Assembly: GCA_041596355.1 (NCBI GenBank)
Contig: JBFHIS010000005.1
Span: 29,430-93,429, forward strand
Reading direction: 5' to 3'
Length of the DNA: 64,000 bases
DNA from: Sulfurimonadaceae bacterium
Lineage (GTDB): Bacteria; Campylobacterota; Campylobacteria; Campylobacterales; Sulfurimonadaceae
The notes under the pieces were generated by a model that saw nothing but the letters and a program-made list of their open reading frames with translations, was not told the origin of the DNA and made no database searches. How positions within the stretch are numbered: position 1 is the first letter of the stretch; each line of letters opens with the position of its first letter. This document shows positions 12,905 to 58,594 of this stretch, piece by piece. A program made the translations under genes and the position numbers.

Positions 12905-13330
12905 TTTGAATCTGTTGGACATTTTAATATCCTTGACTACACTCTTTCCTTTTTCACGACCCGGCATTTAGTGCCTCCCTGCATTGCGCTGTTGGCGCTG
13001 ATACTCCGCAAAAAACGAAACCACACAGCACTAAAGTGCCGTACAGGACGGAACTAAATTCCGTATCGTGAAAAGCGCTCGTGACGGCTTTACCCGAGGG
13101 TATTTCCTTTGGTCACAAGTCGACAGCTGTCGACTCCCATCCTTCCAGTCATTCCTTCGCTAAAAACGACTAACTCACCTTCGGCTCAAACAGAGCCGTT
13201 TTATTAACGCTCTTTCACTCCTTACAGTCTGCCTTGCAGATGCCACGAATCATTCAATCGGTAACGCATCTATTGGATTTAAAAGCTTCGCTTTTATTCC
13301 TGTTTGAATTGCTTGGTGGCAGTTGCTCTT
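12905..13330 (+). repeat. intergenic repeat element, copy A (promoter-like head, hairpin arm unit, conserved body blocks)
   Basis: Shares TTGGACATTTnAATATCCTTGACTACACTCTT with copy B. Shares CGGCATTTAGTGCCTCCCTGCATTGCGCTGTTGGCGCTGATAC with copies C and D. Shares the GCGCTCGTGACGGCT, TCGCTAAAAAC, GATGCCACGA, GGTAACGCAT and AAAGCTTCGCTTTTATT..TTTGAATTG blocks with B and D. Sits between convergent genes. Confidence 0.6.
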
Positions 13331-13587
13331 GATGTCGAAAAAGCTTTATGGATTGGAGTTCAGACAGATATTGGCGTCTAACCGCCAATTAGCCCGGAAG
13401 CCGAAATATTCAACTCGCTCCCATGGTCTCCGTGGGAGTGTATATTTCAGTATCGAGTGATTCGCCCATATGTATTCCCACTTACAACGTGGGAACAAGG
13501 AGCTTAAACATAAAAAAAATCAGCCTTCATTAAGCAATATAGCCACGAAGAAAAGAGCCACATAATCTATCAAAATATTGACAAAGG

Positions 13588-17347: not shown

Positions 17348-17387
17348 CATTTGATTGTATTCGTTAAGGATTGGTTTTTCTTTCTTT

Positions 17388-17700
17388 TTTGAACCTGTTG
17401 GACATTTAAATATCCTTGACTACACTCTTACTTTTTTACGCCGCAAAAAAAGTAAGCAAAAAACCTCTCGTGACGGCTGCGCGGTCGGTAGCTACCGACT
17501 GCTTTCACTCCAGTCGTTCATGTCCTAAAAATCCCTAACTCACCTACGGCTCAGACAGAGTGATTTTATTAACGGTCATTCTCTTCTTACGTTCAACGCT
17601 GTAGATGCCACGAAAGAGAGCAAGCGGTAACGCATCTATTTTAAATTTAAAGCTACGCTTTAATCCCTGTTTGAATTGTTTGGCTATAGCTAGTTAATTG
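17388..17700 (+). repeat. intergenic repeat element, copy B (same promoter-like head as A; lacks the 50-bp arm unit)
   Basis: GAACCTGTTGGACATTTAAATATCCTTGACTACACTCTT, then the CTCGTGACGGCT, GGTCGGTAGCTACCGACT hairpin, CTAACTCACCTACGGCTCAGACAGAG..TTTTATTAACG, GATGCCACGA, GGTAACGCATCTATT and AAAGCTACGCTTTAAT..TTTGAATTG blocks. Confidence 0.6.
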
Positions 17701-17945
17701 TGTCGCAGCAGGATGTTGAATCTCTTCTATAATAAAGTACAAAAGCACAATAAGCGATACACGTTACGACCGGAGATGATGTTTGCAGTAATGCGAAAAT
17801 GTACGAAGGTCCAAAGTCACATCTCTAAAAATATAAATTCAAATCGCAACTATAGAATAAGTAAAACAAAAACCCTCAGTTTGCTTTCGTTATACTTGGT
17901 TAGTTAATAAAACTATGGGTCGGGTGACCCCTAAAAAGAGGTAAC

Positions 17946-19461: not shown

Positions 19462-20895
19462 TTAAGGCTGTATGACAGTGTTGGCAATTAACGTAACTGC
19501 CGTTTGTGCCAAGAGTCTGCCGTTGACTGTCGCACCGGTGTTTAACGTAATCGCTTTTTTTGCCAATACTACACCTTTGAAATCCGCTGTTGTTCCAAGA
19601 GAGACACCCGTACCTCCTGCAACTTGCCAGAAGATATTTTTAGCCAATGCGCCGCCGGCGAGAGTTACTATGGCACCATCGTCCACCGTAAGATCTGCGG
19701 CTATCTGGAAGATCCAGACATCGGTTGCGCTACCCGTGATAGTGACACCTGCATTTGTTATTAAAACACCTGCCGGTGCATCCCATTTGTAAAGTCCAGG
19801 AGTAAGAACCTTACCGCTTACATTACCTGCATACAGTTCAACATAATCAGGCAATGTGCGTCCGGCTGCATCATTATATGCAGTTTCCATGTCGAGTACT
19901 GCCGTTGTCATTTTAGCCGGATCTGTATCGGCTGCATAAATTTTGCCTGTTACTAAATCTGATGTTGCATATGTGCCGACAAGAGTCTGACTAAATCCTT
20001 CCAGAACACTTATAGCAGACGGGCTAAGGCCTATATCTCCTGTAATCGCCGTAGTGCCTGTGGTTGTTATTGTCGTTTTAGCAAGGATTACAAAACTTCC
20101 CGCTGTGCCGAGATTGACTGGCGCTAGAACTGGCGCTTCGGTCGTTCCTGTTGTAAAACTCCAAACCTTAACAACTGCTAAAGCATTTCCGGCTAAGTCT
20201 GTAACGCCAGTAGTGATTGTCGCATTGTATTCAGTGTTTATATTAAGGTTTGCAGTAGGATTGAAGATCATCGTGTTGCTTTCATAGCTTACTGTGCCAG
20301 CAACAGGTGTACCACCCATTGTAGTAGTTAATGTAAAAGTAGCTGAGGTGACAGTAGTAGGATCGAGTGTTTCACTGAAGAGGGCACTGACACTTCTGTT
20401 AATCGACACGTTTATATCACTGTTGTCAGGGTCTGTTGACGTCACTGTAGGTGCAGTAAGGTCTGTTGCTGTCCCTGTTGTAAAACTCCAGAAATATTCT
20501 ACTGCCATAGCATTACCGGCTACGTCCTTCACTCCAGTAGTGATTGTCGCATTATATTCAGTGCCGGCACTAAGATTTGCATCAGGATTGAAAAGCATTG
20601 CATTGTTAGCATAGCTCACTGTACCATCAACAGGTGTACTACCGGCTGTAGTAGCTAATGTAAAAGTAGTTGGGTTTACCGTGGAATCATCAAGTGCTTC
20701 ATTAAAGAAGGCAGCGATGCTTGTATTAAGGGTTGCGTTATTGTCACCTTGAACAGGAGCTGTAGATACAACGGTAGGAGCAGTAGAGTCTATAGTGTTA
20801 TTACTGTTATTATCGCTGCATCCTGTTGCAAAAATTGTCAGCATAAAGAGCATGGAGAGTAGCGCTGTATTTGAGTATTGTTTAAATATTTTCAT
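19462..20895 (-). CDS. surface lipoprotein with tandem Ig-like (SbsA/Big-type) repeats and a C-terminal ice-binding-like (DUF3494-type) domain
   Basis: Start moved to the ATG with an AAGGA RBS (MKIFKQY...). Lipobox FATGC. About 2.5 copies of a roughly 102-aa repeat (TAPTVxSTxP...GTVSYxxNxMxFNPxANL...EYNATITTGVxDxAGNAxAV). C-terminal LGTAGSFVILAKTTITTTGTTAITGDIGLSP block typical of DUF3494. Confidence 0.75.
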   Translation of the reverse strand: MKIFKQYSNTALLSMLFMLTIFATGCSDNNSNNTIDSTAPTVVSTAPVQGDNNATLNTSIAAFFNEALDDSTVNPTTFTLATTAGSTPVDGTVSYANNAMLFNPDANLSAGTEYNATITTGVKDVAGNAMAVEYFWSFTTGTATDLTAPTVTSTDPDNSDINVSINRSVSALFSETLDPTTVTSATFTLTTTMGGTPVAGTVSYESNTMIFNPTANLNINTEYNATITTGVTDLAGNALAVVKVWSFTTGTTEAPVLAPVNLGTAGSFVILAKTTITTTGTTAITGDIGLSPSAISVLEGFSQTLVGTYATSDLVTGKIYAADTDPAKMTTAVLDMETAYNDAAGRTLPDYVELYAGNVSGKVLTPGLYKWDAPAGVLITNAGVTITGSATDVWIFQIAADLTVDDGAIVTLAGGALAKNIFWQVAGGTGVSLGTTADFKGVVLAKKAITLNTGATVNGRLLAQTAVTLIANTVIQP

Positions 20896-21320
20896 TCGAT
20901 TTGTCCTTATAGACACGTTTTTAAAACGTAAATAATATGAATGTAAGATCCGTTACAATGGATAGGTACAAATTCTGAAAGTGTGTCAAACTTACAACTA
21001 GTGATGTATAAAAGAGTGACAATGTTATAAACCTAGCTTCTCTTAGAGTATTTGAAATCACTCTAGATAACTTCAGTGTAGTTGAAATATTATAATTAAT
21101 GGACTCTAATCAATATTAGTTTAAATTATAAGTAATTGTGAAGTAATAGATAGATATGACAGTGTAAATGACCAATAGAAACGCATTTGTGCGTTGAGTA
21201 TGATCACTTTTAAACTTATCTGTATTTAACTGGCTGTTTTGAGGCTGCCTAAACAAGAATCACTACATCAAAAAGATCAATAAAACCTTTATAAACAAGG
21301 GCAGCAATTGTAAATCGACA

Positions 21321-32494: not shown

Positions 32495-32639
32495 AATGTG
32501 CCCCTTTAATTATGATAATCGATTATAATACAAACAGACTTAAACAGTTTATGTCATGTATAGGCTAAATAAGGGTTGATAGTTAGTAGTTTTCGTAGTG
32601 ATTTGTATGGATAGTTCTGATTTGAATGATAAAAAGTGG

Positions 32640-32711
32640 ATGGGGTAGAGGGATTCGAACCCCCGAATACTGGTACCAAAAACCAGTGCCTTACCGCTTG
32701 GCGATACCCCA
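32640..32711 (-). tRNA. tRNA-Gln (anticodon UUG); CCA apparently not encoded
   Basis: Reverse complement TGGGGTATCGCCAAGCGGTAAGGCACTGGTTTTTGGTACCAG...TTCGAATCCCTCTACCCCA, close to E. coli tRNA-Gln; loop UUUUGGU. Confidence 0.8.
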
Positions 32712-32737
32712 ATATTTATGAAAGTTGTTTTTTATGT

Positions 32738-32814
<77 letters not shown>

Positions 32815-32941
32815 ACATTTAAAATTTTTGCTTTATGCCGTACTCTGCGTTAGTTCTTCCTTCGGATACTGGCGTATACCTCAGTCTCAACTGCCTTGAT
32901 TACAACAAAAATCAATAAATTTTACAACCGTTGATTGTAAA

Positions 32942-33026
32942 TGGTGCGGACGAGAGGACTTGAACCTCCACACCGTGAGGCACCAGATCCTAAGTCTGGC
33001 GTGTCTACCAATTCCACCACGTCCGC
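32942..33026 (-). tRNA. tRNA-Leu (anticodon UAG), copy 1
   Basis: 85 nt with a long variable arm; loop CUUAGGA; CCA encoded. Confidence 0.9.
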
Positions 33027-33070
33027 GTTTTTTGTAATAATAAGTAAAATAAAGTTAACAATCAAATAGA

Positions 33071-33155
33071 TGGTGCGGACGAGAGGACTTGAACCTCCAC
33101 ACCGTAAGGCACCAGATCCTAAGTCTGGCGTGTCTACCAATTCCACCACGTCCGC
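33071..33155 (-). tRNA. tRNA-Leu (anticodon UAG), copy 2 (one nucleotide different from copy 1)
   Basis: Identical to copy 1 except for a G/A change in the variable arm; 44-bp AT-rich spacer. Confidence 0.9.
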
Positions 33156-33344
33156 ATGTGTTTGTTGTTAACAGTATTAATAAAGAACATCTATCATTTT
33201 AATTTCTCTGTTTTCAAAAACAGAAGCTTTAGTGCCATAGCGGCAAGCAGTTGTCTCTATGTTCTTTGCAAAACTTTGCAAAAGCTTTAGTGACTTAGCG
33301 TCTAGCGTAGGAAATGGGCTTTGCTCATTTTCGTTCTAAACAAA

Positions 33345-33421
<77 letters not shown>

Positions 33422-33432
33422 GTATTTTTTAA

Positions 33433-33509
33433 TGGTACGCCCGACAGGGTTCGAACCTGTAACCGGCGGTGCCGAAAACCGCTACTCTATCCAGTTGAGC
33501 CACGGGCGC
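33433..33509 (-). tRNA. tRNA-Arg (anticodon read as UCG; loop UUUCGGC)
   Basis: GCGCCCGTGGCTCAACTGGATAGAGTAGCGGTTTTCGGCACCGC...GGTTCGAACCC...CCA. The anticodon assignment depends on hand-folding. Confidence 0.65.
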
Positions 33510-33553
33510 ACACTGTAAAAAATGTCTTATTTCAAATTTTAATTTCTATCAAA

Positions 33554-33631
33554 TGGGGTGAGATACGGGATTCGAACCCGCGACCCCCGGCACCACAAAC
33601 CAGTGCTCTAACCAACTGAGCTAATCTCACC
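33554..33631 (-). tRNA. tRNA-His (anticodon GUG) with genomically encoded G-1
   Basis: An extra 5' G pairs with C73; loop UUGUGGU; CCA encoded. Confidence 0.88.
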
Positions 33632-33659
33632 ATATGTTTGAAAAAAATAAGAAATAAAG

Positions 33660-33737
33660 TGGTCGGGGCGAAAGGACTCGAACCTTCGACCCCCTGGTCC
33701 CAAACCAGGTACTCTAACCATACTGAGCTACGCCCCG
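33660..33737 (-). tRNA. tRNA-Pro (anticodon UGG)
   Basis: CGGGGCGTAGCTCAGTATGGTTAGAGTACCTGGTTTGGGACCAGG...; C1:G72 typical of tRNA-Pro; CCA encoded. Confidence 0.88.
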
Positions 33738-37605: not shown

Positions 37606-38172
37606 TTATTGCTCTTTAAGAATTTTGACAATGGCCTCCGGAAGAAGCTTGTGCTCGAGTCTGCGTATCTTTCGGGTAAAGCTTTCGAGTGTCTCATCGG
37701 CTGTTTTAGAAAAGGCATCTTGGACGATAACCTCGCCTCCGTCGAGTTCGGAACTGACCCAGTGGACACTGACACCGCCGGAAAGCTCACTGCTTTCAAA
37801 ACTCTTTTCTATGGCGTTACCGCCTTTGAAAAGAGGCAGAAGCGAAGGGTGGACATTGATCGCTTTGATGTTGTCTGTGATGACAGGTGTCAAGATGCGC
37901 ATAAAGCCGGCCATAACGACCAGGTCCGGATCATAGTGGCGAATGGTATGCAGGAGCTGGTGGTCAAAACTTTCTCTGTCGCTAAAGTCGGTGTGGTCGA
38001 TGACCTCTACAGGGACATGATGTTCTTTCGCTTTTGCGATCCCGCCGGCATTGGGACGGTTAGTGATCGCGGCAAGGACATCGACCTCTTTGTGATGGAG
38101 TGTTTCGATGATGTTGAGAAGGTTGGACCCTTCTCCGCTAAAAAGGATGACGATTGTTTTACGACTCGGCAT
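37606..38172 (-). CDS. purN: phosphoribosylglycinamide formyltransferase (folate-dependent)
   Basis: IVILFSGEGSNL, NVHPSLLP and other PurN motifs; 188 aa. Its start codon lies inside the first arm unit of repeat locus C. Confidence 0.9.
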   Translation of the reverse strand: MPSRKTIVILFSGEGSNLLNIIETLHHKEVDVLAAITNRPNAGGIAKAKEHHVPVEVIDHTDFSDRESFDHQLLHTIRHYDPDLVVMAGFMRILTPVITDNIKAINVHPSLLPLFKGGNAIEKSFESSELSGGVSVHWVSSELDGGEVIVQDAFSKTADETLESFTRKIRRLEHKLLPEAIVKILKEQ

Positions 38173-38310
38173 TTAGTGCCTCCCATGCATTGAACTGTTG
38201 GTTCCGATACGACTCGGCATTTCACGATCCGTCATTTAGTGACTCCCTGTATTGTGCTGTTGGCACTTAACTGCCTTCCGTGCATTGCGCTGATACGATG
38301 AATCATTTAG
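38160..38310 (+). repeat. repeat locus C: about three degenerate tandem copies of the roughly 45-bp arm unit CGGCATTTAGTGCCTCCCTGCATTGCGCTGTTGGCGCTGATAC
   Basis: acgactCGGCATTTAGTGCCTCCCaTGCATTGaaCTGTTGG.., ..gactCGGCATTTcacgatCC.., GTCATTTAGTGaCTCCCTGtATTGtGCTGTTGGCacT.., ..TGCATTGCGCTGATACgatg. Contiguous units, no unique spacers. Confidence 0.55.
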
Positions 38311-57734: not shown

Positions 57735-57849
57735 TCTGCGACAGGCTTTTTGGTTTTGCACTTGAAATAATTGTATACCCTTTAATTCTTTATTGGCTTC
57801 TCTTTATTTTTTAGTACAGGCGTATCGTTGAAAAGTACAACTTTCGTCT

Positions 57850-58310
57850 CATACACTCTTTCTTTTTTCACGACTCGGCATTTAGTGCCTCCCTGCATTG
57901 CGCTGTTGGCGCTGATACGCCGCAAAAAAATAAAACAAAAAAAGCGCTCGTGACGGCTTCGCAGTCGGTGGCTACCGACTGCTTTCCTTACAGTCGTTCT
58001 TTCGCTAAAAACTGCCGCACCGATGCTTCGCATAACGGTTTATCCAAAAAAACGTGCCTTACAGCACCTTTCTTTTGGCATATCGTCGGCTAAAAAACGC
58101 AAAGAAATTCGCCTTTTTCTTAAGGCCTTTGGCACTCCATACGCTCAACGCTGTAGATGCCACGACACAGGGCTAAAGCCCCGTACAGGGAGGCACTAAA
58201 TGCCGAGTCGTGAAAGAGCTAAGCGGTGACGCATTGATTTGAATGTAAAAGCTTTCGCTTTTGATTTAGTTTGAACTTTGTCGATGTAGAACTGCGTGTT
58301 GGTACAGCTA
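57850..58310 (+). repeat. intergenic repeat element, copy D (perfect 30-bp inverted repeat at 57866-57895 and 58186-58215 flanking 290 bp of conserved body blocks)
   Basis: TTTCACGACTCGGCATTTAGTGCCTCCCTG ... CAGGGAGGCACTAAATGCCGAGTCGTGAAA. The interior carries the GCGCTCGTGACGGCT, AGTCGGTGGCTACCGACT, TCGCTAAAAAC and GATGCCACGA blocks; the tail carries GGTGACGCAT, AAAGCTTTCGCTTTTGATT and TTTGAACTT. Confidence 0.6.
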
Positions 58311-58399
58311 GAACCTACGGAGGGATTTCGTAACTCCGAGTATTCTGATTGATCAAATTGTGACTGTGACCGCCATCGTGCTCTCTTTTTTTCGTTAGG

Positions 58400-58427
58400 T
58401 TTTTTCTCTGCACGAGCAGAGAAAAAA
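58400..58427. terminator. perfect 12-bp-stem hairpin (TTTTTTCTCTGC-acga-GCAGAGAAAAAA), likely a bidirectional terminator downstream of aroC
   Basis: Stem and loop read directly from the sequence; U-runs on both strands. Confidence 0.6.
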
Positions 58428-58594
58428 AGTGACATACTAGTGATTTGAAGTAATTAAAAAAGTTTGAACGTTCAAAAAAGTCACAAGTAATAGACCAAAG
58501 TCATAAAGTAAAAATAGTAAAAAGGACAAAGGAGTTAATTGTCTAGTAGATGACGTCTAATTAAGGACTCGAAGAAATGGAAGAAAGCGTAGAT

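Follow-up and report, generated by a model that had tools for sequence, protein, structure and literature searches.

A high-copy intergenic repeat of Sulfurimonadaceae keeps a fold of at least seven covarying helices and is oriented with replication

The window analysed here, a stretch of 64,000 nucleotides from contig JBFHIS010000005.1 of a Sulfurimonadaceae bacterium, carries three full copies (A, B and D) of an intergenic repeat and a separate group of smaller palindromic modules. The 18-nt hairpin at 13118-13135 is helix P2 of a non-coding module of ~300 nt, which is itself one block of a mosaic intergenic unit of ~600 nt. In each unit this core is followed by a middle module that is exchangeable and then by a shared 3' module, ~560-600 nt in total, and units sometimes stand in tandem as two or three repeats. 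The core of ~300 nt runs from a short leader (…ACTTTATTGAC or …ATATCCTTGAC) to …ATCCCTGTTTGRATTG, and the shared 3' module terminates in …GTGACATACTAGTGCTATGAAGTAATAAAAGAA. Genomes of one Sulfurimonadaceae lineage contain the element in dozens of copies each. In the window, a covariance model of the repeat matched only at 13102-13239, 17463-17604 and 57943-58156, all on the + strand. The features are as follows.

12905-13410, + strand: copy A unit, core followed by a truncated class-1 middle module (…ATATTGGCGTCTAACCGCCAATTAGCCCGGAAGCCG)
12955-13070, + strand: two nested REP-like modules of copy A, one in the H1 loop (CACGACCCGGCATTTAGTGCC...GATAC) and one after H1 (CACAGCACTAAAGTGCCGTACAGGACGGAACTAAATTCCGTATCGTG)
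13079-13085 with 13242-13248, + strand: helix P0 of copy A
13090-13117, + strand: 24-nt insertion of copy A
13118-13135, + strand: helix P2 of copy A, AGTCGACAGCTGTCGACT, a 7-bp stem AGTCGAC/GTCGACT with loop AGCT
17385-17690, + strand: complete core of copy B, without nested insertions
17385-17426, + strand: 5' leader of copy B
17427-17456, + strand: hairpin H1 of copy B
17468-17474 with 17607-17613, + strand: helix P0 of copy B
17480-17483 with 17597-17601, + strand: helix P1 of copy B
17483-17500, + strand: hairpin of helix P2 in copy B, GGTCGGTAGCTACCGACT, GGTCGGT-AGCT-ACCGACT, of which 17484-17499 form P2 within the core
17524-17525 with 17574-17575, + strand: helix P4 of copy B
17528-17535 with 17560-17567, + strand: helix P3 of copy B
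17624-17633, + strand: GURA-capped mini-stem of copy B
17647-17663, + strand: hairpin P6 of copy B, the core tail of this copy being ATCCCTGTTTGAATTG (+ strand)
17691-17870, + strand: class-3 middle module of copy B (GTGTCGCAGCAGG...AAAGCACA...GATGTTTGCAGTAATGCGAAAATGTACGAAG)
38154-38300, + strand: stand-alone tandem REP-like modules, no core module
57830-58465, + strand: copy D unit, core, class-2 middle module and shared 3' module ending ...AAAAAAAGTGACATACTAGTGATTTGAAGTAATTAAAAAA
57868-57919, + strand: REP-like module in the H1 loop of copy D
57948-57954 with 58159-58165, + strand: helix P0 of copy D
57963-57980, + strand: helix P2 of copy D, AGTCGGTGGCTACCGACT, AGTCGGT-GGCT-ACCGACT, with the G at 57970 as first loop base
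58011-58110, + strand: variant arm of ~99 nt that replaces the P3 arm in copy D
58166-58215, - strand: inverted REP-like module after P0 of copy D (CACAGGGCTAAAGCCCCGTACAGGGAGGCACTAAATGCCGAGTCGTGA)
58247-58262, + strand: hairpin P6 of copy D

The initial annotation had described the 18-nt hairpin in three full copies, and all three quoted sequences and positions match the window exactly. The compensatory stem changes that it described are likewise real, since at pairs 6:13 and 7:12 of the 18-mer, where copy A has A-T and C-G, copies B and D carry G-C and T-A, both changes being compensated. The G:T wobble proposed at stem position 7 of copy D corresponds to nucleotides 8:11 and would enclose a loop of 2 nt, which is sterically impossible. 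Since this column, the first of the P2 loop, also varies freely among 61 copies (A in 37, G in 18, C in 4 and T in 2) opposite an invariant T, the G of copy D is a loop base and not a member of a wobble pair. The first G of the copy B hairpin (17483) has a more likely partner in C17597 of helix P1 than within P2. The hairpin had also been placed at one and the same position after GTGACGGCT, which holds for B and D, where it follows after 4 nt, whereas in copy A, with its 24-nt insertion, 28 nt lie between.

The small hairpins GGCA-CTAAA-TGCC and GGGC-TAAA-GCCC had been assigned to the arm region of the same element. Their stems do covary around a conserved loop, but they are parts of separate REP-like modules that lie in loops of copies A and D and are absent from B. 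These modules are palindromes of ~47 nt with covarying stems and a conserved CTAAA/TTTAG loop, CTAAA and TTTAG being the 5-mer loops found most often within perfect 4-bp stems over all loci; they are situated in the H1 loop, after H1, after P0 or alone. The stand-alone group at 38154-38300, which is probably the partial 'copy C' of the initial annotation, consists of two to three tandem palindromes of ~47-63 nt (CGGCATTTAGTGCC, CGTCATTTAGTGAC) of the same family as those nested in copies A and D, and abuts the start of a - strand formyl-transferase (purN-like) gene. The class-3 middle module of copy B recurs after other copies (at loci L061, L075, L034 and L037). The motif CACGA / TCGTG(AC) recurs at module borders (e.g. 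12955, 13066, 13079, 58166, 58210 and 58425), namely at the ends of REP-like modules, in P0 of the core and as GTGAC after the A-run of the 3' module, and it may be a common recombination or cleavage site.

Elsewhere in the window, nine tRNA genes are found at 32637-33737 and 2528-2603, eight of them clustered and including a duplicated tRNA-Leu(TAG). All nine are on the - strand, head-on to the direction of replication inferred from GC skew and gene orientation. A 300-nt direct repeat with 73% identity and 327-nt spacing (20144-20770) lies inside the - strand ORF 19462-20916 and is probably an internal protein repeat.

For the comparative sample, one genome per species was scanned with the pattern AGATGCCACGA-N8-38-CGGTRACGCAT from another part of the repeat, which gave 76 loci in nine MAGs labelled Sulfurimonadaceae, Helicobacteraceae or Campylobacterota. 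A covariance model built from the 5' half of the module found 92 copies, some of them without the search pattern. The nine MAGs contained 87 pattern matches and 92 covariance-model matches. Alignment A2 holds 61 standard-length copies from nine related Sulfurimonadaceae MAGs. Helices were judged by a scan for stacked covarying columns, by inspection of column counts and by a formal count against shuffled and slid controls.

Among the 61 copies, 98.4% of P2 cells are paired and four of the six P2 pairs switch between Watson-Crick states with intermediates almost absent (columns 28:44, GC in 30 and CG in 28; 29:43, UA in 34 and CG in 25; 32:40, AU in 40 and GC in 19; 33:39, UA in 31 and CG in 30). 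The GCU of the loop and the two innermost pairs (C-G/G-C) never vary, and the outer and inner stem variants occur in every combination. The larger set of copies that the initial annotation had called for thus confirms the covariation of P2, and its substitutions are not random with respect to pairing. The central AGCT lacks the covariation expected of a duplex palindrome in these copies; with a centre that is not palindromic, P2 behaves as a hairpin and not as a duplex palindrome.

P2 is only one helix of a ~300-nt fold with at least seven covarying helices. The 33 pairs of seven helices are paired in 97.3% of 2009 cells, against 83.8 +/- 0.5% in shuffled and 33-49% in slid controls, and the number of double-change cells is 310, against 105 (shuffled) and 4-26 (slid). 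Double changes fall at 16 of the 33 pairs, and the observed score was reached by none of 500 shuffles. The long-range helix P1, which encloses P2, exists as CAAG/CTT(T)G, CGAG/CTC(T)G, CAGG/CCT(T)G and CGCG/CGC(T)G, with one pair distributed as AU 28, CG 17 and GC 16 over the 61 copies, and its arms still match while the adjacent P2 variants reassort. P4 and P3 form an arm with a 2-bp triloop at its tip, and P6 is a 3' hairpin of which one pair occurs as AU 25, UA 23, CG 8 and GC 5 (61 copies). Upstream, the arms of H1, a T-run/A-run hairpin, covary as TTTCC/GGAAA, CTTAC/GTAAG and TTCTC/GAGAA. In P0 the most conserved 'single-stranded' blocks pair together, TCGTGAC with GCCACGA, and this helix is compensated in two covariance-model copies that lack the search pattern (TCGCAAC/GTTGCGA at L027 and TCGAAAC/GTTTCGA at L023). 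A putative helix P5 (AGATGC/GCATCT) was rejected, since double changes are missing from it, its pairing is lost in L023_5069, and P0, with which it overlaps, has better support; an extension of P0 (GCTC/GAGC) was also dropped for lack of covariation (p = 0.88). The fold as modelled would thus have a closing stem of P0 and P1 around a junction bearing P2 and the P4/P3 arm, with H1 preceding the closing stem on its 5' side and a small GURA-capped stem and P6 following 3'.

Selection for a single-strand fold is strongly supported, because seven helices covary, including the long-range P1 and P0, which a local palindrome mechanism does not explain. The initial annotation had argued for a folded RNA or at least a single-strand hairpin as opposed to neutral repeat DNA. 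A selected single-strand hairpin is strongly supported, as copies also persist at orthologous sites though 4-fold degenerate sites are near saturation, whereas the choice of RNA loses its sole specific argument with the invalid G:U pair of copy D.

The placement and turnover of the copies were then compared across genomes. Convergent gene pairs flank 30 of the 54 copies for which both neighbours are known. In 75% of cases the gene before the copy is co-oriented and its stop codon lies within ~0-80 nt of the start of the copy; a gene of opposite orientation precedes the copy in 25%, and 66% of copies lie just downstream of a - strand gene. Copies within a genome are old, with a mean identity of 79% and a maximum of 97%; their variation consists mostly of reassorted shared states with few private mutations, and singletons are no rarer in paired (0.81%) than in unpaired (0.55%) columns. 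At orthologous sites the copies remain intact in species whose 4-fold degenerate sites are 37-59% identical, and the adjoining spacers are unalignable; such persistence suggests host-level constraint or continual gene conversion and not simple selfish spread.

At shorter distances the modules differ. Two relatives that are ~92% identical carry one and two units, respectively, with different middle modules. Locus L079 of a close relative, with a YajQ 92% identical to that of the window, has other modules at both window sites, where the covariance model finds no core. At these two intergenic sites (L079 4356-5318 and 9403-10000) stands a different repeated module (…GATTCAACCTTTCTTCTCTGTCGCGCCAGAGAAGAAATCTTGAGGGAAAGAAGAGAGGCGC…) in which one pyrimidine strand pairs alternatively with two purine strands, and which has in common with the window units only the 5' leader, the GTGAC junction and the 3' module. 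In the more distant L080-L082 the spacer is short and empty. The element has a conserved T[TC]GAC where its 5' end meets the flank, to be set beside the fixed tetra- or pentanucleotide 3' of which IS200/IS605 elements insert, and the empty sites are too diverged to provide a clean filled/empty pair. Assemblies break at the element, and the window's organism, which turns up in one Logan assembly only, has contigs there that stop inside the repeat. Proteins closely homologous to the neighbouring YajQ are found almost exclusively on contigs of 1-7 kb. In this lineage, short-read assemblies are thus systematically fragmented by the repeat family.

The orientation of the copies follows replication and not the neighbouring gene. 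As judged from the GC skew of the flanks with repeats masked, 78 of 80 copies have the + strand of the repeat on the G-rich strand, which is the leading strand, as do all 66 copies with |skew| > 0.03, whereas only 64.6% of genes are on the G-rich strand (Fisher 3e-11). The skew is still positive in the opposite-orientation genes alone, which marks it as replication-associated, and the polarity of 97.5% holds though a quarter of the copies follow an opposite-strand gene. L062 6454-6971, the sole locus with two adjacent convergent cores, is one of the two exceptions.

No conserved small ORF was found in the repeat, as stops and frameshifts or 1-nt indels break every candidate ORF across copies. 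Three candidates were rejected for their stops, 1-nt indels and loop lengths not divisible by 3: an ORF on the reverse strand across the conserved ATGCGTTACCG, one with a GTG start in GTGACGG, and a hydrophobic ORF of 40-57 aa in the class-1 middle module. A type I toxin-antitoxin or small-protein locus was discarded with them, as it fails the conserved-ORF test. Neither a conserved -10 or extended -10 box on either strand, for which scans stayed at chance level, nor a conserved intrinsic terminator was detected in the repeat copies. A candidate promoter of the repeat itself, TTGAC-N17-TACACT, was dismissed because its -10-like hexamer reads TTCTCT, CCTCCC etc. in other copies. The conserved extended -10 of yajQ (TTG-n-TTATACT / TGTTATAAT) lies directly downstream of the repeat unit at 17895-17915 of the window and also occurs in L079, L080 and L082; it illustrates the form of promoters in this lineage, and there is no such box inside the repeat. 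Among 467 ORFs in 560 kb of flanks no recurrent or multi-copy neighbour protein was present, and no Y1/HUH, RAYT (tnpA_REP) or other transposase was found in the 560 kb of flanks or among the small ORFs of the window. At the gathering thresholds of Rfam (4227 families) only tRNAs pass in the window, and E-value scans of copy B and of a triple array gave chance matches only (E >= 0.88). Searches of IMG/VR, INPHARED and PLSDB returned no matches, and a phage or plasmid origin is therefore rejected. No account of such a repeat was found in the literature on Sulfurimonas or Sulfuricurvum.

The chemistry of the pairs bears on which strand and which nucleic acid folds. Watson-Crick pairs occupy 1898 of 2009 cells (94.5%), and in the core helices, read on the + strand, G.T numbers 10-11 against about 24 A.C, the latter all singletons, which gives no sign of wobble tolerance on this strand. 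One P0 pair is A.C in 51 of 61 copies and G-C in 10, with A-T in two variant copies, and the majority state of P3 pair 79:108 is also A.C (33 of 61); both conserved A.C pairs become ordinary G.U on the - strand. The base of P6, which alternates U-A/U.G (44/13), and a 3-bp stem capped by GUAA/GUGA, a GNRA-type loop, fit the + strand. Absolute folding energy is lower for the - strand in 56 of 61 copies, and mean folding z-scores are alike (-1.41 for + and -1.13 for -), so that the advantage of the - strand is compositional and folding energy was abandoned as a means of strand assignment. For copy B alone, z is -3.3 as + strand RNA, +0.2 for the - strand and -0.66 with DNA parameters.

We tentatively prefer, at rather less than an even chance, a mobile or recombining element that acts as folded single-stranded DNA coupled to replication, with a structured RNA as its main rival. 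The element would be mobilised or recombined as folded ssDNA exposed at the replication fork, and a trans-acting enzyme would recognise its stems and invariant junction sequences, by the logic of HUH/Y1 systems such as IS200/IS605 elements and REP-RAYT. IS200/IS605 elements act on ssDNA hairpins of the lagging-strand template (PMC6006769). The ssDNA reading would explain why the copies are polar, why the stems are strictly Watson-Crick and why the modules turn over as a mosaic, and high copy number, nesting, site turnover and the lack of transcription signals, taken together with these stems and the polarity, are best accounted for by a DNA element handled as a folded single strand at the fork. 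Several findings count against it: no Y1/HUH or other transposase lies near the copies or in the window, a seven-helix fold of 300 nt with invariant junctions resembles a functional RNA, H1 and P6 are unlike each other while the ends of IS200/IS605 are alike, the + strand, which as the lagging-strand template is expected to be single-stranded at the fork, carries the conserved A.C in P0 and P3, and within-genome copies are old at a mean identity of 79%. We know of no ssDNA recognition site nearly as elaborate as a seven-helix, 300-nt fold. Complexity of the fold, dissimilar end hairpins, the missing enzyme and long-term conservation of copies therefore keep a structured RNA, on either strand, as a serious rival. 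An RNA of the + strand could take two forms, a 3'-end element that acts in cis as terminator, stabiliser or insulator and is made by read-through from the upstream gene, or a free-standing ncRNA family borne by a mobile repeat; we regard this reading as possible though rather unlikely. It has in its favour the usual signature of functional RNA, multi-helix covariation with invariant unpaired blocks, as well as the GNRA-type loop and P6 wobbles, the start shortly after a co-oriented stop codon in three quarters of copies, the z-score of copy B with a slightly lower mean z, and cross-species conservation far above neutral. Yet the repeat has no conserved promoter, intrinsic terminator or Rfam family, G.U does not exceed A.C in the core and A.C is the majority at two pairs, replication polarity holds in copies that follow opposite-orientation genes, and dozens of copies with module swapping are unusual for an RNA gene. 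Orientation relative to replication, copy number and mosaic turnover point at least equally to a DNA-level element. The ssDNA and RNA readings are not exclusive, as by analogy both coexist in the IS200/IS605 superfamily; read-through transcripts from neighbouring genes may adopt the fold too, and an RNA role in end protection or termination may coexist with the ssDNA one.

If the RNA or folded DNA were instead of the - strand, the initial annotation would have taken the wrong strand. This is quite improbable, although the states of the P0 pair then form the classical series U.G / C-G / U-A, the A.C of P3 becomes G.U, singleton A.C outnumber G.T, two thirds of copies lie just downstream of a - strand gene and absolute energies are lower. 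These pair counts are dominated by two positions and are not independent events, the energy advantage vanishes in z-scores with the - strand of copy B no better than shuffles, and the GNRA-type loop and P6 U.G fit the other strand. Such an RNA would moreover be transcribed head-on to replication in ~98% of copies, for which we know of no precedent. Nested inverted repeats acting in duplex DNA, as termini or protein-binding sites with arms homogenised by gene conversion or template switching, would agree with the resemblance of P0 and P1 to imperfect terminal inverted repeats (TCGTGACGGCTTC... / ...GCAGATGCCACGA), the recurrence of TCGTG/CACGA at module junctions, strictly Watson-Crick stems, and shared states that reassort with singletons no rarer in paired columns. 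This explanation is very improbable: homogenisation would have to act on at least seven independent inverted repeats whose arms, 4-7 bp long, lie as far as 140 nt from each other, P2 does not keep a palindromic centre, P1 stays matched while adjacent P2 variants reassort, conserved mismatches and bulges (T148, A.C) are retained, and strand polarity has no role in a symmetric duplex. On the three window copies alone, the two compensated pairs could have been coincidence or shared ancestry, but chance complementarity in neutral repeat DNA has a negligible probability, given that no shuffle reached the observed pairing or covariation, that slid controls pair in 33-49% of cells against 97.3%, and that all inner and outer stem variants combine. 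A further, unlikely possibility is that a mobile element which spreads without any linked protein gene has a large structured RNA, or a combined RNA and ssDNA system, of a kind not described before; such an RNA might be guide-, bridge- or ribozyme-like and served by an unlinked enzyme, with its orientation fixed by a replication-coupled mechanism, and if so it would be a new class beside HEARO/omega RNAs and bridge RNAs.

Returning to the preferred ssDNA reading, if the ssDNA fold is what works, no other DNA-level structure known to be kept by compensatory evolution would come near it in elaboration, and it would point to the existence of a replication-coupled enzyme in Campylobacterota. If RNA is what works, the 16 or more covarying pairs would belong to a large structured RNA class that is new and has no entry in Rfam. 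In practical terms, short-read assemblies of these abundant sulfur oxidisers break at the element, which also marks recombination hot spots between convergent genes, and its orientation could mark the direction of replication in fragmentary MAGs.

Among known systems, REP/BIME/REPIN sequences are like the element in being high-copy extragenic palindromes with compensated stems, mosaic and clustered, mostly at gene 3' ends, and in their long vertical persistence; those with a RAYT (TnpA_REP) depend on a trans-acting single-copy enzyme that works on ssDNA hairpins. The nested CTAAA-loop modules resemble REPs in size and organisation, but these 47-nt modules have CACGAC/GTAC instead of GTAG. The core, with ~300 nt, at least seven helices and long-range pairings, differs from the 20-40-nt hairpin or simple doublet of a REP and lacks the 5' GT[AG]G (or CGTC) tag, the foot of P2 being TTCGCG/TTCAAG; the RAYT gene of REP systems was not seen in the 560 kb of flanks or the small window ORFs. 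To our knowledge, near-absolute replication polarity has not been reported for REPs. IS200/IS605 elements, PATEs and ORF-less HEARO/omega-RNA copies are, like the element, strand-specific and function via folded hairpins. The IS200/IS605 family is typical of Campylobacterota (IS605/IS608), has no classical terminal inverted repeats, includes non-autonomous copies, and unites large structured RNA with ssDNA hairpins within one superfamily. Its orientation is biased relative to replication owing to ssDNA transposition on the lagging-strand template, as that of the element is with 78 of 80 copies on the G-rich strand. In contrast to these elements, no TnpA, TnpB or IscB gene was found, the end hairpins are dissimilar, HEARO and IS605-orfB RNAs gave no Rfam match, the copies are old and diverged, and the exchangeable mosaic middle modules have no counterpart.

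Pneumococcal BOX, Neisseria NIME/Correia and enterobacterial ERIC sequences are also composite units built from few module types; some have predicted stable folds, and they are often co-transcribed with neighbours and form recombination hot spots. They are unrelated to the element in sequence, and nothing comparable to its multi-helix covariation or its replication polarity is seen in them. In integron attC sites, as in the element, structure is conserved and not sequence; they are recombined as a single folded strand of DNA whose mismatches are functional. The orientation of attC relative to replication is fixed in chromosomal integrons. The element differs from attC in having no intI nearby and no R''/R' GTTRRRY boxes at its stem feet, in occupying dozens of dispersed sites and not one array, and in its non-coding units. 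Compared with the defining features of REP, attC, type I toxin-antitoxin loci and every Rfam family, the element belongs to none of them, and it represents a new variant of structured interspersed repeats that stands outside every named family.
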